A stretch of DNA of 64,000 nt from Luteolibacter sp. (GTDB taxonomy: Bacteria > Verrucomicrobiota > Verrucomicrobiia > Verrucomicrobiales > Akkermansiaceae), in assembly GCA_043766715.1 (NCBI GenBank), contig JAYUHS010000176.1, forward strand, positions 15,379 through 79,378. Direction: 5' to 3'. Position 1 is the stretch's first letter, and each line of letters starts with the position of its first letter. Of this stretch, positions 14,591 through 61,591 are shown piece by piece. Made by a program: the position numbers and the translations under genes. Below the pieces are notes generated by a model that saw only the letters and a list, made by a program, of their open reading frames with translations, searched no databases and was not told where the DNA came from.

Positions 14591-14645
14591 GGGTAGTGTA
14601 AATTCGCTGGATCAAAACTAATCAATCACTCAAACAAGTAAACGA

Positions 14646-14668
14646 CTCACCCACCGTTGGCAGGTGAG
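14646..14668 (-). terminator. Possible weak intrinsic terminator/attenuator after the first pilin gene
   Basis: The minus-strand RNA has a CUCACC...GGUGAG 6-bp stem followed by a U-rich stretch (ucguuuacuuguuug). Confidence 0.25.
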
Positions 14669-14704
14669 CCGTAGAACTAAGTCTCCTAATTGGAGATCAT
14701 TAAT

Positions 14705-15121
14705 TTACCATTCTTGAGTGGTCGTGGTAGCTGGTGCGAAGTCAGCGCTGGCGCCTGCAGCCGTATAATCACCAACTAAATACAATACTCCTGTAGTTGG
14801 AACTGAAGTAAGATATGTATATGCACCAAGTGTGGTGTTTGGAGGTGTTGGAGCACGGAGATACTTATCTGCGCCGACAATATCCGTGGAGGCGAGTGTA
14901 GCGCCTTCAAGAAGTTGACGGACGTTCGCGTGAGCACGCACGGCTTGTTGCACGTTACGAATGTTCAGAATGTTCGCTGCGCGGTCCGAACCCTTCTTCC
15001 AAGCGCGAGCGCCAATGAAGAGGATCGAGATGAGGGAAAGCAAGACGAGGATGACGACCGTCAATTCAAGCAGGGTCATACCGGACTTGGGCTTTGCGCT
15101 CAGGGTGTTTGTAAGTTTCAT
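14705..15121 (-). CDS. Prepilin-type pilin/pseudopilin (paralog 1, probable major subunit)
   Basis: Leader MKLTNTLSAKPKSG|MTLLELTVVILVLLSLISILFIG. First pilin after pilT. A small hairpin plus T-rich tract follows the stop. Confidence 0.85.
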   Translation of the reverse strand: MKLTNTLSAKPKSGMTLLELTVVILVLLSLISILFIGARAWKKGSDRAANILNIRNVQQAVRAHANVRQLLEGATLASTDIVGADKYLRAPTPPNTTLGAYTYLTSVPTTGVLYLVGDYTAAGASADFAPATTTTQEW

Positions 15122-15234
15122 AGTGTGTTATTTTCTATATCTAGGTGTGTTGCTATTTTGTCGGATCGAGAATGCTTGGGAGAGGGAGAATTCTAAATTC
15201 TTCCGGCTCCATCGGCATTTCTCAGAAGGTGTTA

Positions 15235-45109: not shown

Positions 45110-45400
45110 TTAAGCCTGAGGACGGGTCTTTGGATTTTTTGTGAAACGGGGTATCTTCCCTGTTCGTTTTTCCGCCCGTTTGAGAATTTCCCCCGGTGAG
45201 ATCCCTAAAACGAAAGCAATCCGCCCCAAGGTTTCCACAGATGGAGCCGCCCCACCTTGTTCCAAAGTGGTAATGAATGACCGAGCCAGACCGGTCCTCG
45301 CCGAAAGTTCGTTTTTTGACAACGCACGGGCCTGCCGCAATTTTGTCAGCTCAACAGGCAAGGCCCGCCTCAACTCTTCCGCCCACGCTCCAGCATCCAT
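45110..45400 (-). CDS. XRE-family helix-turn-helix transcriptional regulator
   Basis: 96 aa. LRQARALSKNELSARTGLARSFITTLEQGGAAPSVETLGRIAFVLGISPGEIL is a classic HTH_3 pattern. Confidence 0.85.
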   Translation of the reverse strand: MDAGAWAEELRRALPVELTKLRQARALSKNELSARTGLARSFITTLEQGGAAPSVETLGRIAFVLGISPGEILKRAEKRTGKIPRFTKNPKTRPQA

Positions 45401-45564: not shown

Positions 45565-46488
45565 ATGTTTGTCGTGAAATTCATCCCCCTGTCCGTCGGT
45601 CTGGCTATAACCGCTCCGCTCTATGCGCAGGAGCCGCACACGAACGTGAGTCATGAGACCATGATTCTTGGAGAAATTTCAGATGGCAGGCCTAGCGAGG
45701 CGTTAGTCGCTCCGGTCTTGCCTGATTTCCGGGTGAAGAACTCGATCCTGCGGAGGATGCGGGTCGTGGAGCCTCCAGAAATGGACGGACTACCGCCCGT
45801 GCAGGGATGGATCAAAACGACAGTGCAACGGGTGGATGATCCCAAGTTGCCCGATCCACCGGCGCCAGTGATCCAATCCATCCCTGATGATTTTGTGGTT
45901 TCTGCACGGTTAGCACAGCGACGTGAACTAGTGCAGACCTCCGACGTCGTTTTTATTTCTGCGACGGTTTATGACCACGCTCGGACCTTACTGCGCTACT
46001 CACCCAGTGGCGCAGGACGCAGGGAAATCTCTGCTTGGTCGAACTTGGACTTTAATTGCTTCTCTGGATTTAGCACCTATCAGGTTAAAGGGCCAGATGG
46101 AAAGGCCAGAGGACATGGTCTTGTGATGGCGATCAGTAATATTGATGCGAAAGCTCGGGCGACTTTCTTGGCGAAACATCACCTCACGTATCAAGCTCCT
46201 GAGATTCCTACGCTCCCTGACTTGGCAGGAGGTGGCCCCACTTTCATCGTCACGCAGGACGACACCCGCGAGACGGCAGCGGTGGCAGTGATCCAAGAAC
46301 TACATGATCTCTATCGGGTAGAAAGTGAACGGATGCAACTCGCCTACCAAGCTCGAATCAAGGCTGAAGAGGAGCGCAGGACCTATTTACTAGCGAATCC
46401 GCCGACGCCGGATGATATCACGATTCGGTTTTGGAAACGACAGTCTCGGCCTTCCGATTTGAAAAAACTGGAGGGGCTCAAACCATGA
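45565..46488 (+). CDS. Hypothetical secreted protein (RHS-cluster gene 1)
   Basis: 307 aa with signal peptide MFVVKFIPLSVGLAITAPLYAQ. No family recognised. The stop overlaps the next start (ATGA). Confidence 0.6.
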   Translation: MFVVKFIPLSVGLAITAPLYAQEPHTNVSHETMILGEISDGRPSEALVAPVLPDFRVKNSILRRMRVVEPPEMDGLPPVQGWIKTTVQRVDDPKLPDPPAPVIQSIPDDFVVSARLAQRRELVQTSDVVFISATVYDHARTLLRYSPSGAGRREISAWSNLDFNCFSGFSTYQVKGPDGKARGHGLVMAISNIDAKARATFLAKHHLTYQAPEIPTLPDLAGGGPTFIVTQDDTRETAAVAVIQELHDLYRVESERMQLAYQARIKAEEERRTYLLANPPTPDDITIRFWKRQSRPSDLKKLEGLKP

Positions 46489-47165
46489 AGCGTGCAGGAT
46501 TGGTAATTCTAATCGGGTTAGTGAGTATCTCACGGATCGCGGCCGAGATGGGGCCAGTCCCACAGGTGTCACTGACGTCTGGAACTTCCAGTAGTTGGAA
46601 CCTCGCTTGGAATGGGCGTGACGGCCTGACTTACTTTTCAAAATGGTCCACCGACCTAGTCGTTTGGAATTATCTACCGGGGATCGAGCAGGGCAGCGGG
46701 ATCAAGACGCCGAGCTTCACCTCCACGACGCCTAAGTTTTTCGTGAGAGTCTTTTGCACGAACATTCCAACAAATGATGCGGAGCTGGCAGATTTCGATC
46801 TGGATGGGGTGGGGAATCTCGCAGAACTCAATCTCGGGATCGATCCGATGGATCCAGATACCGATCATGATGGTATTCCAGACGGCATCGAGATTTCCAA
46901 CAGCGGGAATCCTCTATCCGCTGCGGATGGCGACACGCTGAGAGCAGGTGACTCAGATGGAGACGGAGTTAGCGATGCGATCGAGCTACTGCGCGGGACC
47001 AGTCCGACATTATGGGATAGCGATGGGGACGGCTTTAGCGATGCGACAGATCTGTATCCACTCGATCCGTCGCGTCACAGCCGACCGTCAGTATCGGGAG
47101 ATATCACTCGCCCCATAGTTTCCCTAGAGTCTCCGGCCAGTGCGGTGCTGGTTTCGGGTCCGTAA
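46485..47165 (+). CDS. Secreted protein with beta-module and thrombospondin type-3-like Ca-binding repeats (RHS-cluster gene 2)
   Basis: ATG at 46485 (MKRAGLVILIGLVSISRIAA). Repeats DPDTDHDGIPDGIE, DSDGDGVSDAIE and DSDGDGFSDATD. Confidence 0.65.
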   Translation: MKRAGLVILIGLVSISRIAAEMGPVPQVSLTSGTSSSWNLAWNGRDGLTYFSKWSTDLVVWNYLPGIEQGSGIKTPSFTSTTPKFFVRVFCTNIPTNDAELADFDLDGVGNLAELNLGIDPMDPDTDHDGIPDGIEISNSGNPLSAADGDTLRAGDSDGDGVSDAIELLRGTSPTLWDSDGDGFSDATDLYPLDPSRHSRPSVSGDITRPIVSLESPASAVLVSGP

Positions 47166-47191
47166 TTTCTATCCCCTGTTCTTATTTTCCC

Positions 47192-50100
47192 ATGTCTTCA
47201 CTCACTCGTAGGTATCTCTGGATCGTTCCTATCAGCTTTGCAGTAATCGGTAGCGTCATCTGGTATATGAGTCTTCATCGTGCGATGACTGCGGTGTCAT
47301 TACCTGCTTCGACCGCCCACTCAAAGGCATCTCCATTTCGCGATTCGCTGGTCCATCAACGGACCACCGAGGAGGCAAAGAAGACCGCTGAGGCCCAGCC
47401 ATGCGACGACACGGTGCTCACCTACCTCGACCTGTCGCGGATTCCAACGCAGGGCGAACTCATCGCTGCTGGAAATCTGGGCGAACCGCTTACCCCCACC
47501 TCCGCTGCTGAGCCTGCTGCCATCAAAGACCCGGTGAAGCGAGCACGCCAAGAGCAGGAAAATCTCGCTTTCGGAACGGCCATCCAGACATGGAACCAGC
47601 ATCACTATCCAGAGTCGTTTGCGCTTTTTGAAAAGTATATCAAGGACTTCCCTAGCAGTCCGTGGGCCGCAGAGGCACAGCTTCATCTAGGGTGCTTTTG
47701 CCAGTATAATGGAAGAATGCTTGAGGCGGCGGAGTCGTTCGATCAGATCCTTGCTACGGTGGAGCCGAAGTCGGAAATGTATCACAAGGCGAAGCTACGG
47801 CGCTCGATTCTTCATCTCGACCAAGGAAATCTCGAAGCATCACTCCAAGGCTTCACCGTGATGAAAAGAGACGATCCAGATGCAGGCCACCAAACGTATG
47901 CCTCTTACTGGATTCGTGAAATCGCACTACTCCAGAAAAACGAAACGGCGCTGCGGGACTGCGGGCAGAAGGCGCTGGCCCGGGTGACCGAAATTTTAGG
48001 CAATCTCGCAGAAGCAAAGAAATTGAGGGAGACGGTTTCTGCAGGGCCGCATGGTTTTACCGCCGAGGAGTTGCACGCCACGGCCCTGTTACACGGACTG
48101 GATTCGAATCCGGTGCGGGCGGATGCGGCGCTGGATGATTTACCTGTGCCCTTCGTCGCACACTATCAGGATCATCACTATGTCACCGTCGAGAAGGTAA
48201 CGGCAGAGGAGGTGATTTTTTATGATTCGCGGATGGGGGAAGGTAAAATGCCGCGCACGTCTTTCCAGAAGCAATGGTCTGGATTTGCACTCATTTTCAG
48301 CAAACCGGCGAACGCCGCCGCAATCTATCCTGCGGAAAATTTAAAGGAAATCGTCGGTGGCTGCTGTGGCCACCCTCGCAGTCCATCCGATCTGGGAGAT
48401 GATGGATGCGACAAGAACTGCGGCTTGCCCGGCTGGAGTGTGAATCCGGTGAATTTTAATTTCCGCGTCAGCGACACGCCGATGTGGTGGAACCCACCGG
48501 TAGGGCCCGCAGTCTCGATGTCGATGCTTTTTAACAGCCTTGACTCGCTCAATAAGTACGCACCGTTTGGCAAGAAGTGGTCCTTCGAATATAGCTCTTA
48601 TCTGCTCATCACTCCCGGCGTCCAAGTGCAGGTAAAGGATGGCGACGGTCGGCTTGAAACCTTTACCAGCCCGACTGCGGCGAGTTCCTATCCGATCACC
48701 TATACCCAGCCTGCTGGAGATTTTCGCGAACTCAAAGAAATCGCCGATCATGTATTTACCCTGACCCACCAAGACGGAACCATCTATCGCTATGGTATCC
48801 CGGTGGCGATGACGGGAACTTCTTCGGTCCCACTATTACTGTCCATTGAGGATCGCCACGGTAACACCATCAGCATCACGCACAACGTCCACGGGGCCAT
48901 CACGGAAATCGGTCACTCGATGTTACCTGCGACAACGGCAGCGCCCGGAGTGCCGTCAGCCGCGAGGAAGTGGATCTTCACTTGGGACACCTTCAACGGC
49001 CATGACCGTTTGAAATGGATCGACGATCCATTCGGTCGCCGCGCTACGTTCGACTACGATGCGGACGGGAATTTAAGGCACCAAACCGACATGGGCGGTC
49101 TGAGCTATGGCTATGATTACACGACCAAGTTGGCTGAGAATTCAGTCAGTATTGATTATTACCAAACCACATTTGAACCAAAGACCAATGAACTTTTCAT
49201 TTCCGCAATTCATACTCCGAAGGGGACTACCACCATCCTCACCGAACCCTCCGACGGGAAAAGTGGCTTACCGATCTCGGCTGAAGATCGTGCGAAAGGG
49301 TATAGTCTTTCCTATCCACCCATCGGATTTCCAGAAATGTGGACAAACTACCGGATCCGTATTACTAACCCGGAGAACAAGACCGAAGAATATCACTTTG
49401 AAGGAGTATACAGATACGTCTATCACCGGGATCCGATCCAACTTGCTCGTCCACCGGGCGAGTCGGTTGCACCCATGACCGGTCCATCCGACATGTTTAC
49501 GATCAGTGTCATTGGAGGCAAAAAAGGGAAGGTCGTCGGCACGGTCCGAAAGGGTTCTAATATAAGCGAAACTCTGAATGCGAGGGTCTTTGCTGCTTCA
49601 TCTCTTCAAACGACAGCAATACAGGACTATTCTTATAATTGGACTTCATTTGAGTATAATGCCAACGGCACAATGAAAACTATAAGTTTGCCCAAGGCTA
49701 GCTATTCGACGACTGATCCGTATAAAACTTATTATACTTATGAAACTTCCGGTCTGGGTGCAGGAGTGGACCTTGACAAGGCAACACGCTACTTTGAGGG
49801 AAGTCTTAAAACTCTCATCGACATCGACTACAAGACAGGAACCCGTGATGTAGAGAAAATCACCGATGTTCTCGGGCATGTCACTCGCTACCAATGGCAT
49901 TCCAACGGACTACCCAAAAGCATGACAGATGATACCACAGGCGACGTTATTTCCTATGTTTATGACGAGGGTGTCAACGATACCGATCATTATCCAACTT
50001 GGAAGCTGTTGAAGGTGAAACGAACGACTCCAGCAGTTGGAACGAGTCCCGCGATCACCACTCTCCTCGTTCAAACCGAATATGATGATATCGGGCGTCC

Positions 50101-52690
50101 CTCAATCGTCAGTAACTCTGACGGAGACTATCAACAGCCGAGCTTTGACAATCTTAATCGTCTTACACGGACAGACTTCCCAGATGGAACCTTTTCCCAA
50201 CAGATTTGGGAATGTTGTCACATCGGTGAATCCCGCAGCGGTAAAATGGTGAATGGACAGGATCAGATAAAGGATCGGACTCTTTATTCCCATGACCGCC
50301 GTGGCTTGCTGACTCGGTCCATTGACAGTGCGGGTAAAGTCACGCAACTCACTTATGATGATGCCGGACGACTCAAGACGCTGACGGATCCTAGAAATTC
50401 CCAAACCACTTGGACCTATGATAGTTTAGGTCGAATTGATAAAAAAGTTTTCCCGGATACGACTTACGAACAAATCGTCTGGGAAAATATGGGCCAGCCA
50501 AAAAAGATCCTCAACCGTAGTGGACAGGAAACCAACTTCGTATTCGACAGTAACGGGAACTTAAAAACTGAGTTTGGCACAGGCATCTATATTAACCGAA
50601 GCTACGATAACTGGGACCGGCTCAAGACCGCACAAGATAATTCATATAGCAACAATGCACACACCTACAGCTACGACCTTCTCGGACGCGTCACCTCGCT
50701 GGATGGTCCTTGGAGCGATGACACGCTCAGTTGGCAATATTTGGATGCCGAGAAGAAAGTCATCCGCACCAGTCCCGGAGGACTCACGGAAACCCGCATC
50801 GGCGATACGCAGGACCGTATGAAATCCATCGCGAATCCACTCGGGCTATTTACCTTTGGCTACGATGGTGAAGCGGATCGTGCGCTATCCATCCAGCATT
50901 CCGGCGGCTTTGATACCGCATTTTCCTACCTCGGTGCGGACGATCAACGGGCGCTAAGGACGATCACCTCCAAGTTACCAGGTGGATCATCCATTGGGAA
51001 GCACACTTACAGTTATGACGATCAAAATCGGATCGACTCATGGAAACGTGAGACTCCGTTAGTCAATCCTTTGGGAATCACCCATGGTTACCAATGGAAG
51101 AATTACTATGACTTTTCCTCCCAACTCACTTCTGTTACAGAAAAGTCTCTGACCGGCACACTGGAACAAGGATGGGACTATCAGCACGATCTCGCCGGGA
51201 ACATCAGTTCGGTTCAAAAATCTTCTCAAGTCAATCACTCCGTCTCACTGGTAAAGCGCAATCATGACCTCAGCAACCGTATCACCAGTATGGGAACCGA
51301 TGGGAAGGCCGTGATTCGCGGCACCCTTAGTGAACCTGGGGACGCCACCGTCGGCCTCGCAGGAAGCGGTGACAAACCCGCGAGAATGCTTGCAGACAAC
51401 CGTTTCGAAACCGAGCTGATCCTCCAGCCCGGGAATAACTCCGTCGCCATCGCCGCCACCGATACCAGTGGCAACCGCTCGAACTATCGATTCAATGTCA
51501 CCCTACCCACTGCCAATGTTTCGCCGCTCTCGTTCATTTATGATCTGAATGGGAATCTCACTTCTGATGGGATGCGGAGTTATGAATGGGACATCCACTC
51601 TCGTTTGAAAAAAGTTACTTGGGGCACAGGCAAAACCACCGAGTTCAACTATAATGCACTTGCCCAACGTTGTGAAAGTATCGACACCGTAGCAGGAGTG
51701 GTCACCCGCCATTTCTACTTATTTGATGGAATCCGACTCATTGATCGCCGGACTGGCACCACCGCAGATACTGCCACCATCGACCGCCGCTACTTTTCGC
51801 AAGGCGAGCAACGCAAGAACGGTAGCTCTTGGGAGAACTACTTCTACAGCCGCGATCATCTCGGCAGCATCCGCGAAGTAGTAAAATCAGTGGGAGGAAC
51901 CAACACCCTAGTCGCTCGCTACGACTACGACCCCTACGGCAAGCGCCTCACTCAATACCAAGCCAGTGCCTACACCGGCGGTTGCGACTTCGGCTACACC
52001 GGTCACGTCACAAATCCAAGCCTCGTCGCAGGCCAGACGGAACTCGTACTGACTCACTATCGTGCCTACGATCCGAACTTAGGAAGATGGTTGTCTAGCG
52101 ATCCGATTGGGGAGGCGGGTGGGATGAACTTGTATGCTTATGTGGGCGGGAACCCGATCAACCTATACGATCCCGATGGAATGTGGCCAGCTAGACCGGA
52201 GTGGATGCTGACAAATGCAGAAATCGGCGATGCCTTGAATGATGGATTTTTTGCCACACTTGATGGGGCAATACCATTTGCTGATCCGTTTGCCGATGCT
52301 GGGAAATACGGGCGCTGTGAGTCTGGGATCGGCGTTTCTCAGGCGGCGGGTGGCATTGCTAGGGATGCGGCGTTGTCAGCATTTGTGCCGAATATTGGCG
52401 CATGGGCGAAAAATCCGGTAATGTATGAACTGGGAAGCACAACCGTCCCTACTCGTGTATTCAACACGATCAGTCATTTGGACCCTGTAAGTCGTGGAAG
52501 AATTCTAACGCAGATGAACGGAGGCGGCTTAGGAGGGATGGTGAAAACCGCGTTCGGCACATCATGGAAATATGTTGGAGCAAATACAGCGAGCACATTA
52601 GGAACTGGCCTGACGCCTGGTGGAAACTTGGCCGTCATCGCCGGAATACACGGTGTCGACGAAATGACGAAAAGTAATGACTGTCCATGA
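47192..52690 (+). CDS. RHS/YD-repeat polymorphic toxin with N-terminal anchor, TPR-like block and C39-like cysteine peptidase domain
   Basis: 1832 aa. N-terminal TM. C39-type Cys motif LRDCGQKALARV (Cys codon 47960-47962) and His motif QDHHYVTVEKV..FYDSRMG (48173-48178). Many YD repeats (YxYDxxGR/N). RHS core (YFYSRDHLGSIREV...YDYDPYGKR...THYRAYDPNLGRWLSSDPIGEAGGMNLYAYVGGNPINLYDPDGM), then a ~168-aa C-terminal tip. Confidence 0.9.
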   Translation: MSSLTRRYLWIVPISFAVIGSVIWYMSLHRAMTAVSLPASTAHSKASPFRDSLVHQRTTEEAKKTAEAQPCDDTVLTYLDLSRIPTQGELIAAGNLGEPLTPTSAAEPAAIKDPVKRARQEQENLAFGTAIQTWNQHHYPESFALFEKYIKDFPSSPWAAEAQLHLGCFCQYNGRMLEAAESFDQILATVEPKSEMYHKAKLRRSILHLDQGNLEASLQGFTVMKRDDPDAGHQTYASYWIREIALLQKNETALRDCGQKALARVTEILGNLAEAKKLRETVSAGPHGFTAEELHATALLHGLDSNPVRADAALDDLPVPFVAHYQDHHYVTVEKVTAEEVIFYDSRMGEGKMPRTSFQKQWSGFALIFSKPANAAAIYPAENLKEIVGGCCGHPRSPSDLGDDGCDKNCGLPGWSVNPVNFNFRVSDTPMWWNPPVGPAVSMSMLFNSLDSLNKYAPFGKKWSFEYSSYLLITPGVQVQVKDGDGRLETFTSPTAASSYPITYTQPAGDFRELKEIADHVFTLTHQDGTIYRYGIPVAMTGTSSVPLLLSIEDRHGNTISITHNVHGAITEIGHSMLPATTAAPGVPSAARKWIFTWDTFNGHDRLKWIDDPFGRRATFDYDADGNLRHQTDMGGLSYGYDYTTKLAENSVSIDYYQTTFEPKTNELFISAIHTPKGTTTILTEPSDGKSGLPISAEDRAKGYSLSYPPIGFPEMWTNYRIRITNPENKTEEYHFEGVYRYVYHRDPIQLARPPGESVAPMTGPSDMFTISVIGGKKGKVVGTVRKGSNISETLNARVFAASSLQTTAIQDYSYNWTSFEYNANGTMKTISLPKASYSTTDPYKTYYTYETSGLGAGVDLDKATRYFEGSLKTLIDIDYKTGTRDVEKITDVLGHVTRYQWHSNGLPKSMTDDTTGDVISYVYDEGVNDTDHYPTWKLLKVKRTTPAVGTSPAITTLLVQTEYDDIGRPSIVSNSDGDYQQPSFDNLNRLTRTDFPDGTFSQQIWECCHIGESRSGKMVNGQDQIKDRTLYSHDRRGLLTRSIDSAGKVTQLTYDDAGRLKTLTDPRNSQTTWTYDSLGRIDKKVFPDTTYEQIVWENMGQPKKILNRSGQETNFVFDSNGNLKTEFGTGIYINRSYDNWDRLKTAQDNSYSNNAHTYSYDLLGRVTSLDGPWSDDTLSWQYLDAEKKVIRTSPGGLTETRIGDTQDRMKSIANPLGLFTFGYDGEADRALSIQHSGGFDTAFSYLGADDQRALRTITSKLPGGSSIGKHTYSYDDQNRIDSWKRETPLVNPLGITHGYQWKNYYDFSSQLTSVTEKSLTGTLEQGWDYQHDLAGNISSVQKSSQVNHSVSLVKRNHDLSNRITSMGTDGKAVIRGTLSEPGDATVGLAGSGDKPARMLADNRFETELILQPGNNSVAIAATDTSGNRSNYRFNVTLPTANVSPLSFIYDLNGNLTSDGMRSYEWDIHSRLKKVTWGTGKTTEFNYNALAQRCESIDTVAGVVTRHFYLFDGIRLIDRRTGTTADTATIDRRYFSQGEQRKNGSSWENYFYSRDHLGSIREVVKSVGGTNTLVARYDYDPYGKRLTQYQASAYTGGCDFGYTGHVTNPSLVAGQTELVLTHYRAYDPNLGRWLSSDPIGEAGGMNLYAYVGGNPINLYDPDGMWPARPEWMLTNAEIGDALNDGFFATLDGAIPFADPFADAGKYGRCESGIGVSQAAGGIARDAALSAFVPNIGAWAKNPVMYELGSTTVPTRVFNTISHLDPVSRGRILTQMNGGGLGGMVKTAFGTSWKYVGANTASTLGTGLTPGGNLAVIAGIHGVDEMTKSNDCP

Positions 52691-52875
52691 AAACTTGCAC
52701 AGGTCTAGCCATGATTTTGGTGTATATTTTAGCAGGCCTATACTTAAGTGTACATCTTGGAATAACTCATGGAGCAAAGGGCTATTTTATTGGTGCTCTT
52801 GTAGGTTTTGGCGGAAGTATGATTATCGGGGCAATTGTCATCAGTATCATTTCAAAAAATATTCATAAAAAATAG
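52687..52875 (+). CDS. Small two-TM membrane protein, candidate cognate immunity protein
   Basis: 62 aa. ATGA overlap with the RHS stop. Two hydrophobic helices with GxxxG-like spacing (GALVGFGGSMIIGAIVI). AT-rich. Confidence 0.55.
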   Translation: MKTCTGLAMILVYILAGLYLSVHLGITHGAKGYFIGALVGFGGSMIIGAIVISIISKNIHKK

Positions 52876-52944
52876 TTAGACACGATCTAGTTCGTAGTCA
52901 TCGAAGGTCCTCTCAAGCTGTGTTTCCCGCTAGATGTTAAGTGT

Positions 52945-53841
52945 ATGAATGAAGAACGATCTAGCAGCAGCACTTGGGAGATCTACTTTTACTCCCGCGA
53001 TCACCTCGGCAGCATTCGCGAAGTGGTAAAATCCGTGGGTGGAACCAATACCCTAGTCGCCCGCTACGACTACGACCCCTACGGCAAGCGCCTCACCCAA
53101 TACCAATCCAGTGCGTACACGGGCGGTTGCGACTTCGGCTACACCGGTCACGCCACCGCCCCCAGCCTCGTCGCAGGCCAGACGGAACTCGTGCTGACTC
53201 ACTACCGTGCCTACGATCCGAATCTAGGAAGGTGGTTGTCTGCGGATCCGCTTGGGGAGGCGGGTGGGATGAACTTGTATGCTTATGTGGGCGGGAACCC
53301 GATCAATGAATGGGATCCCACCGGTCTGGCTTCTTGGCGCGACCATTGGGAGGCTCTTGGCTCTTGGAGCGGCGATGAGTTGGGTGAGTCTTTAGGACTC
53401 GGAGCAATGGCCACTGCTGATGGGTTCATTCCATTCAGTGATCCATTCCAGTTATCCGGCGGCTATAGTGGCTGCGAAGATGGAGCAGCATTTTCAAAAG
53501 GAGCGGGCGAAGTTGCTAGAGAGGCTGCATTAATGGCCATAGGCGCGGGTCTGGGGGCAAGAGCCGCAGGAGTGAAAGGAGCAGGAAAGGAATTTTCTCA
53601 TTTTATTCCAAACAGAATGGGTGGGCCACGCTCAATCTGGAATGGAAATTACGTAAGCACTCGAACTCATGCTCTTTCAGACCCATTTCGTTACAGATTC
53701 ATGCCCAGAGCGTGGAAGGAGGCAAATCCAATGCCAAACAGATTGAAACAGCTATGGGATCGCTTGCCGAACACTTGGAAAGGCACAGCGGCGGGAGCAG
53801 GCGCGGCAGTTGGCAGCCATGCAGGCGATAACTGCAAATAA
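52945..53841 (+). CDS. Orphan RHS core-tip with alternative C-terminal toxin (HNH/EndoVII-like motif candidate)
   Basis: 298 aa. Residues ~10-125 nearly duplicate the RHS core end of the main gene (DNA 52972-53317 vs 51830-52175). The cleavage-type motif is NPINEWDPTGL. The tip contains EFSHFIPNRMGGPRSIWNGNYVSTRTHA. Confidence 0.75.
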   Translation: MNEERSSSSTWEIYFYSRDHLGSIREVVKSVGGTNTLVARYDYDPYGKRLTQYQSSAYTGGCDFGYTGHATAPSLVAGQTELVLTHYRAYDPNLGRWLSADPLGEAGGMNLYAYVGGNPINEWDPTGLASWRDHWEALGSWSGDELGESLGLGAMATADGFIPFSDPFQLSGGYSGCEDGAAFSKGAGEVAREAALMAIGAGLGARAAGVKGAGKEFSHFIPNRMGGPRSIWNGNYVSTRTHALSDPFRYRFMPRAWKEANPMPNRLKQLWDRLPNTWKGTAAGAGAAVGSHAGDNCK

Positions 53842-53855
53842 CGGCACGTCCACAT

Positions 53856-54590
53856 ATGATTTTACGAAAACTCAAAAATTTATTCAACCAGTATCGTTCT
53901 TACGAACAGGCGATACTTGATGCGCTCATAGAAAACAGTCCCGAAAGTTCTCGAGGCATCTTGAAGAGCCAACTGGATCGCGTGAGCAAGATTCAACGGC
54001 ACGCGGAGGGACGCGAAGTGAACCTTTATTGCATGAAAGGCGGAGCAGCATTTTTAGATGAGTCCCTACGCTTTCCAAATAGCAAGCCGGAACTGTTGTT
54101 GGCGAAGGCAGCCATAGAATCCCCTTGTCTCAGAGAGGCTCTGCGTGCAGAGGTGTGGATGGCTAACGGAAGGATTTTTTCCCTGATGTTCAATCGGTCT
54201 CCAAATGGAATTGGCAAAGACTTCAAGGTGAATCATTTTGAAATACTTTCCGATCCGATGAAGCAATTCGTTGAGGGCGAGGAAACCATCAAAGATCGGG
54301 AAAAAATTCTCGAAGAAATTAATGCGTCGTTACCTGAAGAATACATAACGATGATCGAAATAAAACACGATCATTCAATTAACGGCTGGCAACTTTACGA
54401 TATCCCGAATATCAGAAAAATAGCTTTTCCTGACAAAAATTATTATCTTCTCGCGGAAAAAGAAGGTCGTGGCGCAATCGCAGTGGCGGAATCGAATCTA
54501 TCTGGAGAATTGTTTTATCTCGATTATGAAGACGACGGTCCTGAAAAAATCAGAGTTCCGTTGTGTGATTTCATTGAAGCCATTAAATAA
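53856..54590 (+). CDS. Candidate immunity protein, C-terminal SUKH (SMI1/KNR4)-like domain
   Basis: 244 aa and AT-rich. LPEEYITMIEIKHDHSINGWQLYD...YYLLAEKEGRGAIAVAESNLSGELFYLDYEDDGPEKIRVPLCDFIEAI fits the SMI1/KNR4 pattern. Confidence 0.5.
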   Translation: MILRKLKNLFNQYRSYEQAILDALIENSPESSRGILKSQLDRVSKIQRHAEGREVNLYCMKGGAAFLDESLRFPNSKPELLLAKAAIESPCLREALRAEVWMANGRIFSLMFNRSPNGIGKDFKVNHFEILSDPMKQFVEGEETIKDREKILEEINASLPEEYITMIEIKHDHSINGWQLYDIPNIRKIAFPDKNYYLLAEKEGRGAIAVAESNLSGELFYLDYEDDGPEKIRVPLCDFIEAIK

Positions 54591-55207
54591 ATGTCAATTC
54601 AAGTTTCCAGACCAGACAAGTTTCCAGACAAACCCAGTTAGGATCAGGTCGCGCATTGAAACAATTTAAGTGGCTCTACTGAATCCAAGAATCACCCATG
54701 ACACGGGCAAACTATCGAAACACGAAATCTTCGGCGAGGAGAAGAGTGAAAGAAATCGTGAAGCCAACATCATTGGGTCATGCCGAGCATTGAAACAATT
54801 TGAGGGGTTTCAATTGACTCTGAAAGTCACCACTCGGCTACCCTGTGTCCATGAAAGTCCAATCCTGTCATTTTTGACTTTAAGAAATTTAACTATAGAT
54901 GGGTGGGCTAAACGCAGATGCAGTGGATCAAAACCCAGTCTTGATTGGGGTTCTCTACTTGAGAGACCGTCTTGAAATATCTAACTTTAGATTCTGGCGA
55001 CCATTCGCTTGCTCATCGATAGATAGATCATGGCCTCCGTGGTATCGGTCAAACTCACCTCTCTGATATTGAATCCTTAGTCTGATAGTTGACCAGAGCT
55101 GTAGTCTCCGAGGACGGCAGCGAGCAGATGGGTGAGCGAGGCCTAGCCATTGGTCGGCTTATATAAGCTCCTTGCTATCCCATACCAAATTCAACAATCA
55201 AAGTCGG

Positions 55208-56206
55208 TCAGAATTTCACTTCATCCACGGAATTCGGCCTCACCGCGACCTCATCTCCAACACTGAGCGCGAGATCTTCCAGTTGCTTACGAGACAGTTC
55301 GACGTCAACAAATTGGCCATCTTCAAGCCGCAAGCTAAGAGTGGCAATGGGGCCGGCATTGAACAAATGCTGCACTCGTGCCAAGCGATCCGTAAGTGGT
55401 TCATATTCTGCCGCGAATAACACTTCGATTTCGTGGGGTCTGACATACTGAGTTTCACCAGATGCATCTCCGATTTTATTCACATTCCCAAGAAACTCAT
55501 AAACAAACGGACTGCGTGGCCGATCGTAGATGGATTGGGGATCACCGACTTGTTCGACGCGGGCGTTGCGCATCACCACGACCTGATCGGCGAGCTCGAG
55601 TGCTTCCTCTTGGTCGTGGGTGACAAATAGGGTGGTGAGGCCGATTTCATCGTGAAACTGCCGCAGCCAGCGGCGTAGGCTTTTCCTTACTTGCGCATCT
55701 AACGCGCCGAAGGGCTCGTCCAGCAGAAGCACCTTCGGCCGGATCGCAAGGGCGCGAGCCAGCGCCACCCGCTGACGCTGACCACCCGAAAGCTCGTGAG
55801 GACGGCGCTGATCAAGGCTTTCGAGTTTGACCAGCTTCAGCAACTCAGAAACACGGTCACGAATTTCCTGCTTCGCCGGGCGTTTAGAGCGTGGAAGCAC
55901 ACTCAACCCGAAGGCAATGTTCTCCGCGATCGTCATGTGACGGAACAGAGCATAGTGTTGAAAAACAAAGCCAACGCCGCGTTTTCCCGCCGGAATGTCG
56001 CCCACGTCCTCGCCATGGAAACGGATTTTACTGTTTCCTGCATCGGCGAATTCCAGCCCTGCGACAATGCGTAGCAGCGTGGTTTTCCCCGATCCCGAAG
56101 GTCCTAGCAAAGCGGTCAGTGAGCCGTCTGGAACTTCGAGAGAAATATTCTCAAGCGCGGAATAATTACCAAAGGTCTTATTGATAGATTGAATCGAGAT
56201 CGACAT
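55208..56206 (-). CDS. cysA: Sulfate/thiosulfate ABC transporter ATP-binding protein
   Basis: 332 aa with [27 protein letters not shown] and [11 protein letters not shown], plus a C-terminal regulatory (TOBE-like) domain. Confidence 0.88.
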
Positions 56207-56217
56207 GGGAAGACAGA

Positions 56218-57147
56218 CTACTTGTGAGTGGAAGATGACTTGCCTGAAAAATGTTCGACTACGCTTTTCAGACCCAGAGTGACGAGGGCGAGAAAGGCAA
56301 GTAACGTGGCGCAGGCGAACGCCGCACTGAATTGATACTCGTTGTAAAGGACTTCGATGTGGAGTGGCAGCGTGTTAGTCACTCCACGGATGTGACCGGA
56401 AACCACCGAGACTGCGCCGAATTCACCCATGGCTCTGGCGTTACAAAGTAAGACGCCGTAAAATAATCCCCATTTAATGTTCGGTAATGTCACTCGGAAA
56501 AAAATCTGCCAGCCTCTGGCCCCTAGCGTAATCGCGGCTTCTTCTTGATCGCTACCTTGGGTTTCCATGAGTGGGATTAGCTCACGTGCGACGAAGGGAA
56601 ATGTTACAAATACGGTGGCGATGACAATGCCGGGAAATGCGAAGACGATTTTTGGATTTCCCAGCCATTCGGATAGACTGCCGAACAGCCAGTTGAAACC
56701 ACGATATTCTGCCAAAGAAGCCGTCAAGCGAGCCGCAGGTTCGAAGAAATCGGCAAGTGCCGATGGTGGCAGCCAACCTTTAGAGCCGAAAATCATCACC
56801 CACACTAAGCCGGCGATTACTGGAGAAACGGCAAATGGAAGATCGATCAACGAAAGCAGAAATGCCCGACCTTTGAAGCGATATTTAGTCACCAGCCATG
56901 CGGCGGAAACTCCGAATACCGTATTGAGCGGCACGGAAATCGCCGCAGCGAGCAAGGTCAGTTTGATCGCCGAAAATGCTGTTTCCTCATGCAAGGAGGC
57001 GAGGAATACTTCCCAACCACGGCGCATCGCTTCCGCAAAAACAGCGGCTAACGGAAGGAGTAAGAAGAGAGATAGCACGACGACGGCAAGGCCGATGAGG
57101 ATCAAGCGGACCAGCGGCGACTCAGTAGTGGCGGGACGAAGAGCCAT
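56218..57147 (-). CDS. cysW: Sulfate ABC transporter permease CysW
   Basis: 309 aa, second permease of the operon, with an EAA-type loop ([21 protein letters not shown]). Confidence 0.85.
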
Positions 57148-57151
57148 GGTT

Positions 57152-58036
57152 TCAGTGGTGTTGCCAGTCGAGGCGGCGCTGCAGGAGATTGATGAGAAAC
57201 AGCAAAGTGAAAGACACCATCAGCATCGCGGAAGCGATGACTGCCGCCGCTTGATACTTAAACTGCTCAAGCTGCGCGACAATGAGAAGCGGAAGGATTT
57301 CGGTTTTCATTGGTAGGTTTCCCGAGATGAAAATCACTGAGCCATATTCGCCAATGGCTCGCGCAAAGGCGAGGGTGAAGCCGGTGATCAATGCTGGAAC
57401 AAGTAGCGGAAGAATGACCCGCCGGAAAATGGTCCAGCGGTTCGCTCCCAAGGTGGCAGCGGCTTCTTCGATTTCCACGCCGAGATCTTCCATCACCGGC
57501 TGTAACGTCCTAACGACAAATGGAAAACCAATGAACGTGAGTGCGATGAATACGCCAAGTGGGCTGTAGGCGGCCCCTTTGGACGCCCAATCGTCCACCT
57601 GTTCACCTAGCCAACCCGAGGGAGCATAAGATCCTTGATACCATTTCGCTGCCTGCGAGATATACTGACCGATCCAGCCGTTCGGTGCATAGATCTGGGT
57701 CAGTGTGATACCAGCCACAGCGGTGGGGAGTGCAAATGGTAGGTCCACCATCGCATCAAGGATCCGCCGACCTGGGAACTCATAACGGACTAACACCCAC
57801 GTCACTAGCAGCCCAAGCACCACGCTCACTCCAGCAGCGGCAGCACTTGCGCCGAAGGTGAGTTGCGTCGCTGCGATGACGCGCGGTGTGGTTAGCAGAC
57901 TCCACCATTCCGACCAGCCCAGTCCGGCAGCCTTGATAAATAACGCGGCCAACGGGATCAGAATGATCAAGCCCAAGTAAGTCACCGTGAAACCCATCGA
58001 CAGGCCGAAGCCGGGTATAACGCGTCGTTTTGACAT
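57152..58036 (-). CDS. cysT: Sulfate ABC transporter permease CysT
   Basis: 294 aa, first permease, with the loop [21 protein letters not shown]. Confidence 0.85.
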
Positions 58037-58075
58037 GAGTGAGGATTGGGTGGTTTGCCGGTGATTGAGAAGAAG

Positions 58076-59107
58076 TTATTTAACGCTGTAAATTTGGTCG
58101 AAGGTTCCACCGTCGTCGAAGTGTTCCTTCTGTGCCTTTACCCAGCCGCCGAAATCTGAATCCACCGTGACGAGTGGAAGCTTGGGTAACTTGTCCACAT
58201 ACTTCGCGGCGATGGCTTGATTACGAGGCCGATAGAAATGCTTGCCAGCCAGATTTTGCGCCACGTCGGTGTAAAGGAACTCAAGATAGGCACGGGCGGC
58301 TTCGGTTGTTCCGTGTTTCGCGGTGTTTTTCTCGACAACGGCGACTGGGGGTTCAGCGAGGATACTCAAGGATGGATAAACCACCTCAGTTTTTCCGGGG
58401 AATTCCTTCTCGATTAGATAAGCTTCGTTTTCCCATGAAAGGAATACATCGCCGATTTCACGTTGGGCAAAGGTGGTGGTAGAACCACGGGCACCAGCAT
58501 CAAGCACCGGCACGTTTTTGTAGAGAAGGGTGATGTAATCGATGATTTTTGCGCGATCTCCGCTGAACTCTTTGTTGGCCCATGCCCACGCAGCTAGGTA
58601 ATTCCAGCGGGCACCGCCAGAGGTTTTCGGATTTGGAGTGATCACCTTCACCCCATTTTTGACGAGATCGCCCCAGTCTTTAATGCCTTTGGGATTTTCT
58701 TTCCTAACGACGAAAACAATAGTGGAAGTATAAGGCGAACTATTATTTGCAAGTTTGGACTGCCAATCGGCAGGAAGGGACTTTGCTTCCTTAACGATAC
58801 TATTGATATCACCCGCCAAGGCGAGTGTGACCACATCGGCTTCAAGGCCATCAATCACCGAGCGGGCTTGTTTACCGGAGCCGCCGTGGGATTGCTCGAC
58901 GGTCACGGTTTGGCCTGTTTTAGCAAAGCGGTCATTCTTAAAGGCCTCGTTGATCTCCACATAAAACTCGCGGGTGGGATCATAGGACACATTCAGGAGT
59001 TTCAAGTTTTTCGCGGTAGAACCAAGTTCGACAGGCTTGTTTTTACCGCAACCTGTCAGCACTAAGGCGGATGCGAGAATGGTGGGAATGAGAGATTTTA
59101 TTTTCAT
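58076..59107 (-). CDS. Sulfate-binding periplasmic lipoprotein (Sbp/CysP family)
   Basis: ATG at 59105-59107 with a lipobox (ALVLTGC). Full-length similarity pattern to sulfate-binding proteins ([16 protein letters not shown]..., [16 protein letters not shown]). Confidence 0.85.
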
Positions 59108-59159
59108 TTTTGTGAAGTGATAGATCAACTAAGTGGGAATTTGAATCGATGATAGAACT

Positions 59160-60317
59160 TTAGAACGAGAACCGGATGCCGGTAAGCAGTGTGGTGCCTT
59201 GGTAGGCTTCACCGTTCCCTTTGAGTTGCGCCCATTCTGCACCAGCGAGGACTTTGAGTTTATCGCCATAGATGAAGTATTGAACACCTCCATAAAAGGA
59301 ATTGTAGTTGTCGCCGCGAGCGCCGCCGGTGGCGATGGGTTTTTCGTAGCGGCTTTGTGCGATGACTCCCAGTGGACCTGCGCTGTTAGCATAAGAATAG
59401 CGACCTACGAGTTGGAGTTTTTTCGGAATGATATCGTAGGTGGGCTGAACGTAGAATCCGTAAACATCACTGTCATCGCCGTCTCCACCTGCCGCGAAGA
59501 AGCTTTCAAAAACGATTGCTGCGGCCTCTTGTTTCACTGCGAAGGTGGCGGAGACAATGTCGTCATAGCGGGCTAGAACGAAGTCACCAGCCTCCCGCTC
59601 GCTGTGTAACCAGTCGAGATGAATGTCTGCCTTCTCGGTGTGGAGAATTTCTTTGAGGTCGTAACCGACTCCCAAAGTTGTGGAAATTCCGCCATTTAAG
59701 TCGCCGAATTCACCATCGCCAAATGCGCCGCTTCCTCCAGTGTTGGTAGGTGTGTCATTGGAGTAAATGCCAGCGCGCCACGAGAATTCGTCTAGGCTAC
59801 CTTCTGCGGTGAATCCGGTTGCTCGGTTCACGCCGAGTTGGTTGAAAATTTGTGAGCGCTCAAAAGTCGGCTGGGTGTTAGTCGATTCTAGGAAATCATA
59901 TTGACCGATGAGTGGTTTCATTTTTCCCAGCGTAAAACTCAGCGATGAGGTGGGTTTCCAGCGAATGTAGGCATCTACGAGTCCATCATAGAAATCATTG
60001 AAACCGTCATTACTTTGAAAGTCTGCGCGAATTTCGATTTTCTTTTCGAAGAGTTTTGCATCGAAACCGAAACGCGACCGGCGGTCTTCCCAGTTACTCT
60101 GGCTGCCTTGGTCAGCATCCGTGTCCCAATATTGCCCCTGATAGCGGCCGCGTAGTTTAAATTCTTCGAGAATGGGGTTAGCATCGTTTTTATAGAGGGT
60201 GGCATAGCTCCACCATTCGTCGAGGGTGTGAGTGAGAGGATCTTCGGCAGCTAAGGATGTAGAAATGCCGGTGGTGAGACTTAATAAAAGAGCCGATGCT
60301 GAGCGGGATAGTTTCAT
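59160..60317 (-). CDS. Outer-membrane porin (OprO/P-like anion porin candidate)
   Basis: 385 aa with a signal peptide, alternating beta-strand pattern and a C-terminal ...GIRFSF. It is the first gene of the sulfate uptake operon. Confidence 0.6.
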   Translation of the reverse strand: MKLSRSASALLLSLTTGISTSLAAEDPLTHTLDEWWSYATLYKNDANPILEEFKLRGRYQGQYWDTDADQGSQSNWEDRRSRFGFDAKLFEKKIEIRADFQSNDGFNDFYDGLVDAYIRWKPTSSLSFTLGKMKPLIGQYDFLESTNTQPTFERSQIFNQLGVNRATGFTAEGSLDEFSWRAGIYSNDTPTNTGGSGAFGDGEFGDLNGGISTTLGVGYDLKEILHTEKADIHLDWLHSEREAGDFVLARYDDIVSATFAVKQEAAAIVFESFFAAGGDGDDSDVYGFYVQPTYDIIPKKLQLVGRYSYANSAGPLGVIAQSRYEKPIATGGARGDNYNSFYGGVQYFIYGDKLKVLAGAEWAQLKGNGEAYQGTTLLTGIRFSF

Positions 60318-60360
60318 ATGAGTTAATGTTTGAGTTAGGTAGTGGGAGAGAACTTGTAGT

Positions 60361-60479
60361 TAGAAATAAAAAAGAGACCGACGGTCCGAGAGGATAGGAT
60401 ATACAAAGTTCGGGAGATGCTCTGGGCATCGCGAATCTCGTATGTTTCCAAGTCCTCCGGTGGTCCGGTCGGTCTCTTT
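60361..60479 (-). terminator. Long-stem structured element ending in a U-run (terminator or structured leader/sRNA)
   Basis: Perfect 12-bp arms at 60371-60382 (aaagagaccgac) and 60468-60479 (gtcggtctcttt) enclose ~85 nt with further internal pairing. On the minus strand the 3' arm is followed by UUUUUUAUUU. Confidence 0.45.
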
Positions 60480-60502
60480 GGTGTGGACGGGCTAAGCCCG
60501 AT

Positions 60503-60709
60503 TTAATGAGATGATTTCACTTGGGGCGCTTCTTGAGGCGCGGGAACAATGCGTGTTTTCTCAACACTTTCGACTTGGGTGACACGGCCATCGTGAACCG
60601 TGATTTGGACTGAGCCGAAGCGAAGGTTGCCAACATTTTTCCTAACGATCTCAAGCCATTCAGTTGGTGTGTTTTCGTTAGCTGGACTGTCAGAGAGATT
60701 CGAGCTCAT
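60503..60709 (-). CDS. YezD/DUF2292 family small protein
   Basis: ATG at 60707-60709. WLEIVRKNVGNLRFGSVQITVHDGRVTQVESVEKTRI matches the DUF2292 pattern. Overlaps the Rrf2 gene's 3' end by 20 nt. Confidence 0.65.
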   Translation of the reverse strand: MSSNLSDSPANENTPTEWLEIVRKNVGNLRFGSVQITVHDGRVTQVESVEKTRIVPAPQEAPQVKSSH

Positions 60710-61280
60710 GGGTATCTTGAGAGTGGGTTGCGAGTGCGGAAAGACCTGCCAAGAATCCATCCGCGGGGTCGGCTTTACGTTTCGGGGTAATTCCTGCGAT
60801 GGCGAAAGATTCTGCGGTGGCAAAGGGAGGGACGATCCCGTCGCGGCGCATTTTCCGTAGGGTAACCTCGACGACTTGGGCAACGGTGTAGCGGTCAAGA
60901 ATGTTGGCGATGGCATTTCGGACATCGATCATGATCATGCGCAGGCCACAATGGTCTTCGTCTGGACAAGAGCAGGGTTGGTAGGCATTTTCGCTGGCGC
61001 AGCAGATGGGAGCTAACCGGCCATCCATGAGGCGGACGATCTGCCCGATGCCGATCTCGTCGGCGGGCTTTGCGAGTGCGTAGCCGCCGAACTTGCCGCG
61101 ATGAGTCTCAACGACGCCGGCTTCGCGAAGTTCCTGCAAGATCCGTTCCACAAATTTCAATGGAAGGCGGTTGGCTTCTGCTAGCTCGGAACCTGAAACA
61201 GTTCCCCGACCGACTTCGGCTGCGATACCGAGATTGATCGTCGCTCGAAGCGCGTATTCAGATTTTTTGGAAAGATGCAT
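60690..61280 (-). CDS. Rrf2 family transcriptional regulator (Cys-rich, probable Fe-S type)
   Basis: ATG at 61278-61280. MHLSKKSEYALRATINLG...GGYALAKPADEIGIGQIVRLMDG is a canonical Rrf2 wHTH, with a Cys cluster (PICCASENAYQPCSCPDEDHC). Confidence 0.85.
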   Translation of the reverse strand: MHLSKKSEYALRATINLGIAAEVGRGTVSGSELAEANRLPLKFVERILQELREAGVVETHRGKFGGYALAKPADEIGIGQIVRLMDGRLAPICCASENAYQPCSCPDEDHCGLRMIMIDVRNAIANILDRYTVAQVVEVTLRKMRRDGIVPPFATAESFAIAGITPKRKADPADGFLAGLSALATHSQDTHELESL

Positions 61281-61591
61281 TCGCTTAACTGGATTTATTA
61301 GTAGGAGTTCGGCTGGGTTTGCCAAGGAAAAAATTTAAAAGATGTTTTAATGTCTTAAGCGATTGATAGTAAGTCGAATAAGAGTGAAAGTGCGCTCGAT
61401 AATCGCTGCCAAGAAGTGGCTTTTAACGATTCTATACCGAGGAGTATGGAATTTCAGAACCTTAAAAATTGGTGGGTGGTTGTGATTTGTGGAGCAGTCG
61501 GAGGCGAGTTCTGCGGGGAGATTCCGTAATGCGGGTGTTTGCGAGTTGTTTCCTATCAAGTTAGACGATATTTTTGCCGGAGAATTTGTTT

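Follow-up and report, generated by a model that had tools for sequence, protein, structure and literature searches.

A putative self-processing C39 peptidase in the N-terminal module of a Luteolibacter RHS toxin and its relatives

Related RHS toxins and C39 peptidases

RHS cocoons are among the commonest carriers of bacterial toxins, and their export, maturation and delivery in two-membrane bacteria are unclear outside type VI secretion (T6SS) and the Tc toxins. The protein considered here is encoded in a 64,000-nt stretch of a Luteolibacter sp. contig (JAYUHS010000176.1), which was analysed as a whole and is called the window; it is 1832 amino acids (aa) long and carries a TPR block and a C39-type cysteine peptidase domain ahead of an RHS shell, an Rhs-associated core and a C-terminal toxin. 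Its identity as a polymorphic RHS toxin is close to certain. It is proposed to represent a T6SS-independent toxin system in which the protein is exported through Sec and cut in cis by its own C39 domain; this mechanism as a whole is given a probability of roughly 0.6.

The Rhs effectors of the T6SS, such as RhsA of P. protegens and TseI of A. dhakensis, share with the window protein a YD cocoon, a DUF6531-like plug and a DPxG core with an encapsulated polymorphic toxin (PMC8765631); a downstream immunity gene and orphan tips are also common to both, as is a second, N-terminal cleavage upstream of the plug, which in the window protein is predicted. The T6SS effectors require this N-terminal cleavage just upstream of the plug; in TseI the cut depends on glutamates at +7/+8, while the mechanism used by RhsA is unresolved (PMC8765631). 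The window protein differs in having a Sec signal-anchor, in lacking PAAR, prePAAR and a VgrG-binding part, and in the predicted agent of its N-terminal cut, a dedicated C39 domain in the same chain that would act at a GG site; if true, this would supply a defined mechanism for a step whose chemistry in RhsA is not settled (PMC8765631).

C39 domains of the PCAT/AMS exporters, represented by ComA, PCAT1 and LahT (PDB 3k8u, 6mpz, 6v9z), have the same fold and Cys/His/Asp triad as the window domain, and the LSxxELxxIxGG motif that they recognize is its predicted substrate. The window domain is not fused to an ATP-binding cassette (ABC) transporter and is predicted to be periplasmic rather than cytoplasmic; its motif is on the same chain and C-terminal to the domain, the P1'-P2' positions are an invariant Cys-Cys, and there is no conserved oxyanion Gln. 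The CdiA-like StbD-CT also has a C39 domain within a polymorphic toxin, where it self-cleaves in cis after the Gly-Gly of an adjacent linker, only under reducing conditions (bioRxiv 10.64898/2026.05.07.723447); a cis cut after an adjacent GG is likewise predicted for the window protein. In StbD-CT, however, the C39 domain is the C-terminal toxin itself and the GG is N-terminal of it, whereas in the window protein C39 is an N-terminal processing module, the GG is C-terminal of it and a distinct tip, enclosed by the RHS shell, is the toxin.

Placing a releasing peptidase ahead of a polymorphic toxin is not a new principle; PrsW and ZU5 have been proposed as N-terminal releasing peptidases, in some cases with RHS repeats and a variable toxin behind them (Zhang et al. 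2012, PMC3482391). The window protein resembles these toxins in its constant N-terminal autoprocessing peptidase; PrsW, however, is a polytopic intramembrane metalloprotease and ZU5 a self-cleaving module, and neither has a papain fold or a recognition site of the leader type. With no PrsW match and a single hydrophobic segment, the 1832-aa protein works like this class without being a member of it. The 2012 survey has C39 solely as a C-terminal toxin domain, Tox-PL-C39 (PMC3482391), and N-terminal C39 domains of giant Omnitrophota proteins are the subject of a passing remark (bioRxiv 10.1101/2023.11.21.568195). A literature search combining C39 with Rhs, YD and polymorphic toxin, with subscription journals outside its coverage, found no description of an N-terminal C39 domain on an RHS protein. 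The initial annotation had called the delivery mode undescribed for RHS toxins of Planctomycetes-Verrucomicrobia-Chlamydiae (PVC) bacteria; the novelty is the C39/GG↓CC implementation together with the partner genes, while the releasing-peptidase principle had already been proposed. A C39 domain outside an ABC exporter, probably periplasmic and with its substrate site built into its own chain, gives a hypothesis that can be tested by mutation.

RHS cocoons that make no use of a T6SS are also present in the WapA-type, Sec-dependent RHS/YD toxins and in the BC cocoons of Tc toxins. The first step of WapA export is dependent on a signal peptide. The two-membrane hosts of the present family need a further step, and the accessory genes, coding for a TSP3-repeat protein and a 307-aa protein, differ from those of WapA and Tc systems. 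Pfam gives no match to SpvB, TcdB or FG-GAP in the 1832-aa protein, which on this count is not one of the Tc BC proteins; it has neither the SpvB/TcB N-terminal part nor a beta-propeller in the same chain, and its neighbours are the TSP3 and 307-aa proteins.

The peptidase domain and its putative cleavage site

The open reading frame (ORF) of the toxin begins with ATG. By Pfam it contains five stretches of RHS_repeat (E=4.9e-21), a weak plug-type DUF6531 match at residues 442-491 and a weak match to the Ig-like Glucodextran_B, in which the first strand of the profile is missing. By NCBIfam, TIGR01643 matches the YD repeats (E=6.4e-14), TPR models of the YbgF/BamD/CpoB type match residues 108-243, and the full Rhs_assc_core profile (TIGR03696) is matched at residues 1579-1664 (E=1.5e-19). 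The core reads ...YDPNLGRW...NLYDPDGM↓W, which contains the DPxG motif of Rhs/YD toxins. The profiles, together with the hydrophobic N-terminal segment, bear out the order of signal-anchor, TPR, C39, YD shell, Ig-like insert, Rhs core and DPxG motif that the initial annotation had read from the sequence. It had also put the catalytic Cys at exactly the codon of Cys257 and the catalytic His within 48173-48178, which includes the codon of His329.

The C39 assignment is supported by several comparisons. Residues 253-373 match Peptidase_C39 (PF03412) in Pfam with E=6.6e-19 and 68.5 bits (cutoff 22); by sequence, the closest PDB entry is the peptidase domain of ComA (3k8u, E=5.9e-7), in which the catalytic Cys and His align. 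An AlphaFold2 (AF2) model of residues 77-503, computed from a 10-sequence alignment, has a mean predicted local distance difference test (pLDDT) score of 71, with the TPR and C39 parts at ~90. Its best fold match in the PDB by Foldseek is the double-glycine protease LahT150 (6mpz), and the peptidase domains of ComA and PCAT1 provide further C39-type matches (5xe8 and 7n87 among the top ones); the peptidase fold and catalytic residues proposed at the outset are thus recovered. The triad Cys257/His329/Asp345 is invariant in all 88 aligned relatives, down to ~30% identity, and W362-x-G364 is invariant or nearly so across the same set. Such invariance indicates selection for catalysis, and the catalytic residues are under strong purifying selection. 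No ABC_membrane or ABC_tran domain is matched by Pfam in the 1832-aa protein; the PCAT models of NCBIfam match through the peptidase part alone and reach 35 bits, where the cutoff is 853.

The predicted substrate of this domain is a leader-like motif with GG↓CC at its end, ~27 residues past the domain in the same protein. Among 99 relatives aligned at the motif, GGCC is invariant (99/99) and the next residue is Gly in 94%; upstream of it are L at -12 (60%), S at -11 (39%), E at -8 (50%), [LM] at -7 (58%) and [IVL] at -4 (51%). The resulting family consensus before CC, LSxxE[LM]xx[IV]xGG, is the one published for the leaders of C39-processed peptides, LSXXELXXIXGG (PMC1538908). At least four of these five leader features are found at 50% of the GGCC sites and at 1.6% of the remaining GG dipeptides of these proteins (n=1277), a 32-fold enrichment; the site of the window protein has four of the five. 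In 80 of 100 sequences, a tether of 26-29 residues joins the peptidase WxG to the GG, while the linker between the GG and the RHS plug can have anything from 26 to 95 residues. A C39 domain with an intact triad, a leader motif held on a short tether of fixed length and a flexible linker behind it together form a signature of self-processing in cis at G390↓C391. Cleavage at this bond is considered probable; from these sequence features we infer cleavage as such, G390↓C391 as its site and the cis mode. A self-cleaving leader/C39 cassette might also be of use as a tool in protein engineering.

The invariant Cys-Cys at P1'-P2' has no explanation from substrate recognition and probably has a chemical role. 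A redox latch between Cys257 and the CC pair is the preferred guess, by analogy with the StbD C39 domain, since that domain self-cleaves after Gly-Gly only when conditions are reducing. Together with the lone terminal strand of the conserved TSP3 partner, the CC pair points to chemistry and assembly steps that have not been described.

Two other motifs of the N-terminal part were considered. The VGG↓C sequence was rejected as a lipobox, as it is ~390 residues away from the signal sequence. The pre-TPR motif at residues 79-103 has the family consensus LDLSRPPxEEELMAAGQLGGPLxPT (72 sequences) and looks like a double-glycine leader displaced by two residues; 59% of the family have its second Gly, at which position the window protein has Glu. 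It is not claimed as a second double-glycine site, given a register two residues off the leader consensus and the G-E of the window protein; judged from its sequence, it might act as a second site or as a pseudo-substrate.

The TPR-C39-RHS arrangement is a conserved one. When 1.84 billion cluster representatives were searched exhaustively with HMMER (E<1e-30), at least 109 clusters at 50% identity were returned, with many members of 1400-2000 aa. Homologues of the first 433 residues are fragments at contig ends that run on into the RHS part, which shows the C39-RHS fusion to be conserved; among long members, an RHS shell is present in 51/51 and an Rhs core in 46. The C-terminal tails (n=45, 72-400 aa) fall into 40 clusters, and the toxin tips are thus hypervariable; with its constant N-terminal module, the family is a bona fide one of polymorphic toxins. 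A genome scan limited to one genome per species, using a query alignment of 6 close sequences, retrieved 43 loci, of which 35 family loci were analysed for their neighbours. The closest are Luteolibacter/Akkermansiaceae metagenome-assembled genomes (83% identity); other carriers in Verrucomicrobiota belong to Opitutales, Puniceicoccaceae and Spartobacteria, and beyond this phylum the family is found in Acidobacteriota, Thermodesulfobacteriota/Desulfobacterota (including Candidatus Electrothrix), Syntrophales and Gammaproteobacteria. Among the gammaproteobacterial carriers are Thiohalocapsa sp. PB-PSB1 (complete genome, CP050890) and Microbulbifer epialgicus DSM 18651 (NZ_JBGMEK010000013.1, locus L030); the latter is in culture, which makes experiments feasible. 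A family member is also carried by the 2.1-Mb contig JAXGLL010000001. The TPR-C39-RHS architecture therefore extends over several phyla and is not specific to PVC bacteria.

Export, proposed processing and competing explanations

Only one 19-residue segment of the 1832-aa protein is strongly hydrophobic (residues 8-29). In the window protein and its close Akkermansiaceae relatives this N-terminus looks like an uncleaved signal-anchor; at the same position distant members have cleavable signal peptides (...SIFA↓EQN, ...AAKA↓SQP) or lipoboxes (...LLTGC). The net charge around the segment is +2.6 on the N-terminal flank and +0.4 on the C-terminal flank (46 members). Sec export of the TPR-C39-RHS family is considered highly probable, and with Sec-type N-termini across the family the TPR, C39 and RHS parts should fold in the periplasm. 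We infer this periplasmic location, with which the TPR matches agree; by Foldseek, the TPR part of the AF2 model resembles YbgF and BamD, both periplasmic proteins.

Under the proposed mechanism, Sec would insert or export the 1832-aa protein by way of its N-terminal signal-anchor, and the TPR, C39 and RHS parts would fold outside the cytoplasm. The RHS shell would enclose the C-terminal toxin and, in the manner common to all Rhs proteins, release it internally at its DPxG aspartyl site. The C39 peptidase would bind the double-glycine leader-like segment of its own chain and cut in cis after Gly390, splitting the anchor-TPR-C39 module from a mature cocoon with Cys391-Cys392 as its new N-terminus; the CC pair may form the redox latch with the catalytic cysteine. 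The cut would be the counterpart of the N-terminal autocleavage required by T6SS Rhs effectors, and in the window protein it would additionally free the cocoon from the inner membrane. The co-transcribed 307-aa and TSP3-repeat proteins could act as accessory factors in surface display or target binding, and an orphan tip with its own immunity gene may be swappable into the main gene through a 300-nt repeat.

An unlikely elaboration of this mechanism treats the GG↓CC cut as chemical priming. The exposed Cys-Cys would serve a disulfide latch with Cys257, acylation or a thioester-type ligation, the cut would open the plug end to the tail strand of the TSP3 partner, or this strand would complete the Ig-like insert, and the outcome would be a surface-displayed, two-component, contact-dependent delivery. 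If true, this would be a new route of RHS delivery, independent of T6SS, type V secretion systems and Tc toxins and widespread in Verrucomicrobiota and Desulfobacterota.

Several observations weigh against the cis-processing mechanism. Measured against the family consensus, the window protein has a weaker leader match at its site, where Y (-12), P (-11) and N (-8) are found, and the AF2 model has pLDDT <50 from residue 392 on and moderate confidence at residues 387-391. No oxyanion-hole Gln is conserved ~6 residues before Cys257; positions -6/-7 are E251/N250 and these columns vary. Known C39 domains work in the reducing cytoplasm, and a periplasmic catalytic Cys beside conserved cysteines might be prone to oxidation. 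The crossing of the outer membrane by a cocoon of ~1440 aa is left without explanation. Lastly, a pair of 300-aa and TSP3 genes is also found beside a C39-less RHS protein in Luteolibacter sp. Populi (complete genome, CP161812; locus L045, 300-aa gene at 10001-10903), so that the partners are not tied to the peptidase step; the pair is a general RHS accessory module in Verrucomicrobiota.

The conserved cysteines and the low confidence of the model past the motif also lend themselves to an improbable alternative, in which the C39 domain serves in trans for the maturation of a different double-glycine substrate (a co-secreted bacteriocin, for example, or the partners) and GGCCG is an uncleaved structural knot held by a disulfide or metal. 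Classical C39 domains process separate peptides (PMC1538908), the conserved C168, C391, C392 and C410 could make disulfides or a metal site, and the segment past residue 391 is not placed by AF2; the partner proteins, however, carry ordinary Sec signal peptides and no double-glycine leaders. In a clustering of ORFs of at least 90 aa from 45 sources (44 fetched loci and the window), to which shorter peptide genes are invisible, no conserved leader-bearing neighbour was found. A knot would moreover leave the leader residues at -4, -7, -8, -11 and -12 and the fixed length of the tether unexplained.

Loss of the catalytic Cys is characteristic of the C39-like domains of RTX exporters, while the present family keeps Cys, His and Asp without exception (88/88 relatives, down to ~30% identity); this makes it quite improbable that the domain is a non-cleaving binding or chaperone domain of the HlyB type, holding the leader-like segment so that the RHS N-terminus or plug stays placed during Sec export and folding. 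The lack of a conserved oxyanion Gln would fit such a role, and the C39-like domain of HlyB is mentioned as a chaperone in bioRxiv 10.1101/2023.11.21.568195.

The initial annotation had proposed self-processing from the membrane anchor, aided by the two upstream secreted proteins. Its self-processing component is supported by the leader motif, the GG↓CC site and the fixed distance, and the two secreted proteins turn out to be conserved neighbours; general release from an anchor is not supported. The signal-anchor of the window protein and its Akkermansiaceae relatives looks uncleaved, and a cut at G390 would free their cocoon; many TPR-C39-GGCC relatives with cleavable signals or lipoboxes need no such release, so that anchor release cannot be the conserved purpose of the cut and is a clade-specific by-product, as in the window protein. 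It is accordingly improbable, to nearly the same degree as a trans-acting protease, that release of the toxin from the membrane is the essential role of the peptidase. A likelier conserved purpose, by analogy with the T6SS effectors, is the N-terminal processing needed by Rhs cocoons.

It is very improbable that the protein is the cargo of a dedicated system encoded elsewhere (T6SS, extracellular contractile injection system or type II secretion system, T2SS), with its N-terminal helix as an element like prePAAR or a transmembrane domain. The analysis covers 64 kb of the genome, which leaves room for such a system, and a secretin-containing cluster resembling a T2SS or a type IV pilus lies in the window (Table 1). 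NCBIfam is ambiguous between the two for this cluster; it is 31 kb upstream of the toxin gene with housekeeping genes between, its PilT-type ATPase suggests a pilus, and no evidence was found that links it to the toxin. The 1832-aa protein has no PAAR match at E<=1 and no VgrG-binding or MIX-type domain by Pfam, and the N-termini of the family are typical Sec or lipoprotein signals. No T6SS genes are present among the scanned window ORFs or the conserved neighbours of the family loci (0/35), which are secreted TSP3 proteins instead. As the initial annotation had stated for PAAR, VgrG, T6SS, two-partner secretion (TPS) and ABC-C39 genes, none of PAAR, VgrG, Hcp, TPS or a C39-ABC exporter (PCAT) is found among the window ORFs of at least 150 aa that were scanned; its statement that no known export partner is nearby was too strong, given the Sec signal of the protein itself and the secretin cluster. 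This cluster, the GG↓CC site, the immunity ORF and the orphan Rhs cassette were absent from that annotation.

Partner genes, toxin tips and the wider locus

Table 1. Features of the toxin locus and of the secretin cluster; positions are those of the window
Feature	Position	Strand	Basis or remark
T2SS/type IV pilus-like cluster: GspF/PilC, GspE/PilB, secretin, GspM-like, PilT	5765-16521	-	profile matches
Secreted 307-aa protein, first gene of operon	45565..46488	+	cluster in 7 loci including Opitutales
Secreted TSP3-repeat (Ca-binding) partner	46485..47165	+	Pfam TSP3_bac; ends 27 nt before toxin gene
Main gene, TPR-C39-RHS polymorphic toxin	47192..52690	+	ORF and translation, Pfam, NCBIfam
N-terminal signal-anchor helix, residues 6-28	47207..47275	+	hydrophobicity
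Pre-TPR motif LDLSRIPTQGELIAAGNLGEPLTPT, residues 79-103	47426..47500	+	column frequencies, 72 sequences
TPR block, ~residues 115-248, YbgF/CpoB/BamD-like	47534..47935	+	NCBIfam; AF2 helices pLDDT ~90; Foldseek 2xev, 3qky
Peptidase C39 domain, residues 253-373	47948..48310	+	Pfam, PDB sequence match, Foldseek, invariant triad
Catalytic Cys257	47960-47962	+	aligns with ComA catalytic position
Catalytic His329, second of HH pair	48176-48178	+	aligns with ComA catalytic position
Asp345, completing the triad	48224-48226	+	aligns with ComA catalytic position
Leader-like segment IYPAENLKEIVGG, then CC; predicted scissile bond G390↓C391	48323..48367	+	alignment, spacing, leader-feature enrichment
GG (389-390)	48356-48361	+	
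CC (391-392)	48362-48367	+	
Variable-length linker with C406, C410, up to plug start G-x-P-x-W-x-V-N-P-V-N	48368..48427	+	alignments
RHS/YD-repeat shell including N-terminal DUF6531-like plug region	48428..51925	+	Pfam RHS_repeat, DUF6531; NCBIfam YD_repeat_2x
Ig-like insert within shell, residues 1374-1437	51311..51502	+	Glucodextran_B profile positions 20-80 of 83
Rhs-associated core with DPxG self-cleavage motif, end ...NLYDPDGM(1664)↓W	51926..52183	+	TIGR03696
C-terminal toxin, residues 1665-1832, Gly-rich	52184..52690	+	downstream of Rhs core
Candidate immunity gene, 62 aa, two predicted transmembrane helices	52687..52875	+	start overlaps toxin stop codon
Orphan Rhs core and alternative toxin tip, 298 aa	52945..53841	+	translation, repeat
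Probable immunity gene for orphan tip, 244 aa	53856..54590	+	weak SUKH/SMI1_KNR4, E=0.0063, below family cutoff; position

The TSP3-repeat protein is a conserved neighbour, an adjacent TSP3-repeat protein on the same strand being present in 24/35 family loci; 32 of 463 ORFs are TSP3-positive, and 27 of these 32 are partners next to the toxin gene. The TSP3 partners range from ~230 to 2231 aa and carry variable adhesin-type domains, namely RCC1 propellers, LamG, Ig, PKD, cadherin and NIDO. All partners in Verrucomicrobial loci, and that of locus L031 from an unclassified bacterium, end in a tail with a motif such as ...FPLDPxR...TPPVITIxxPxxG..., which is found a few residues ahead of their own stop codon and 3-93 nt from the toxin gene; in the window this tail is a lone beta-strand-like C-terminus (...RPIVSLESPASAVLVSGP). 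The tail resembles the first strand of a bacterial Ig domain, and when the last 25 residues of the partner are joined to the Ig-like insert of the RHS shell, the Glucodextran_B match extends from profile positions 20-81 to 1-81 and rises from 22.3 to 26.4 bits, with the cutoff at 27. Strand complementation between the partner tail and the insert is suggestive only, as read from these sequences.

The 307-aa protein has 177 homologues at E<=0.001, and all of those listed are hypothetical or unnamed; it has no Pfam match, and its AF2 model has a pLDDT of 83, yet no fold match in the PDB at E<0.1. That either partner acts as an accessory factor of the toxin is a tentative assignment, held with well under even confidence.

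In some loci a YD repeat directly follows the signal peptide of an adjacent large secreted protein (L030, 7955-9649; L024, 16645-21003; L036, 14873-21001; L027, 14489-16942). Three of these loci are proteobacterial and L027 is Verrucomicrobial; three of the four proteins are TSP3 partners, and that of L027 has no TSP3 motif. The arrangement hints at a direct beta-sheet contact between such neighbours and the RHS shell.

The toxin tip (residues 1665-1832) has no Pfam match, five homologues only, all unannotated, and PDB matches at chance level. The 62-aa protein encoded directly behind it is, from its position and predicted helices, the likely immunity protein; many related loci also have a small membrane protein gene behind the RHS gene. 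A pair of such helices is typical of immunity proteins against toxins that act on membranes, and with an immunity candidate of this kind the toxin itself is probably membrane-acting. A second tip is held in the orphan cassette, which shares with the main gene a 300-nt direct repeat of 90% identity (51824-52123 and 52969-53268); the main and orphan tips have a common 52-aa subdomain with 52% identity. The repeat would allow tip switching. The 244-aa ORF that follows is the probable immunity gene of the orphan tip.

Just upstream of the operon lies a small divergent ORF (45110-45400, -) that is XRE/HTH-like by eye; the equivalent ORF in Luteolibacter sp. Populi (L045, 9467-9697, -) has weak HTH_3/HTH_31 matches, and the window ORF may be a regulator. 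G+C content drops from ~0.58 to 0.48-0.54 over positions 46000-62000, which include the toxin locus and the sulfate ABC importer genes beside it, a pattern compatible with a toxin region that was acquired horizontally.

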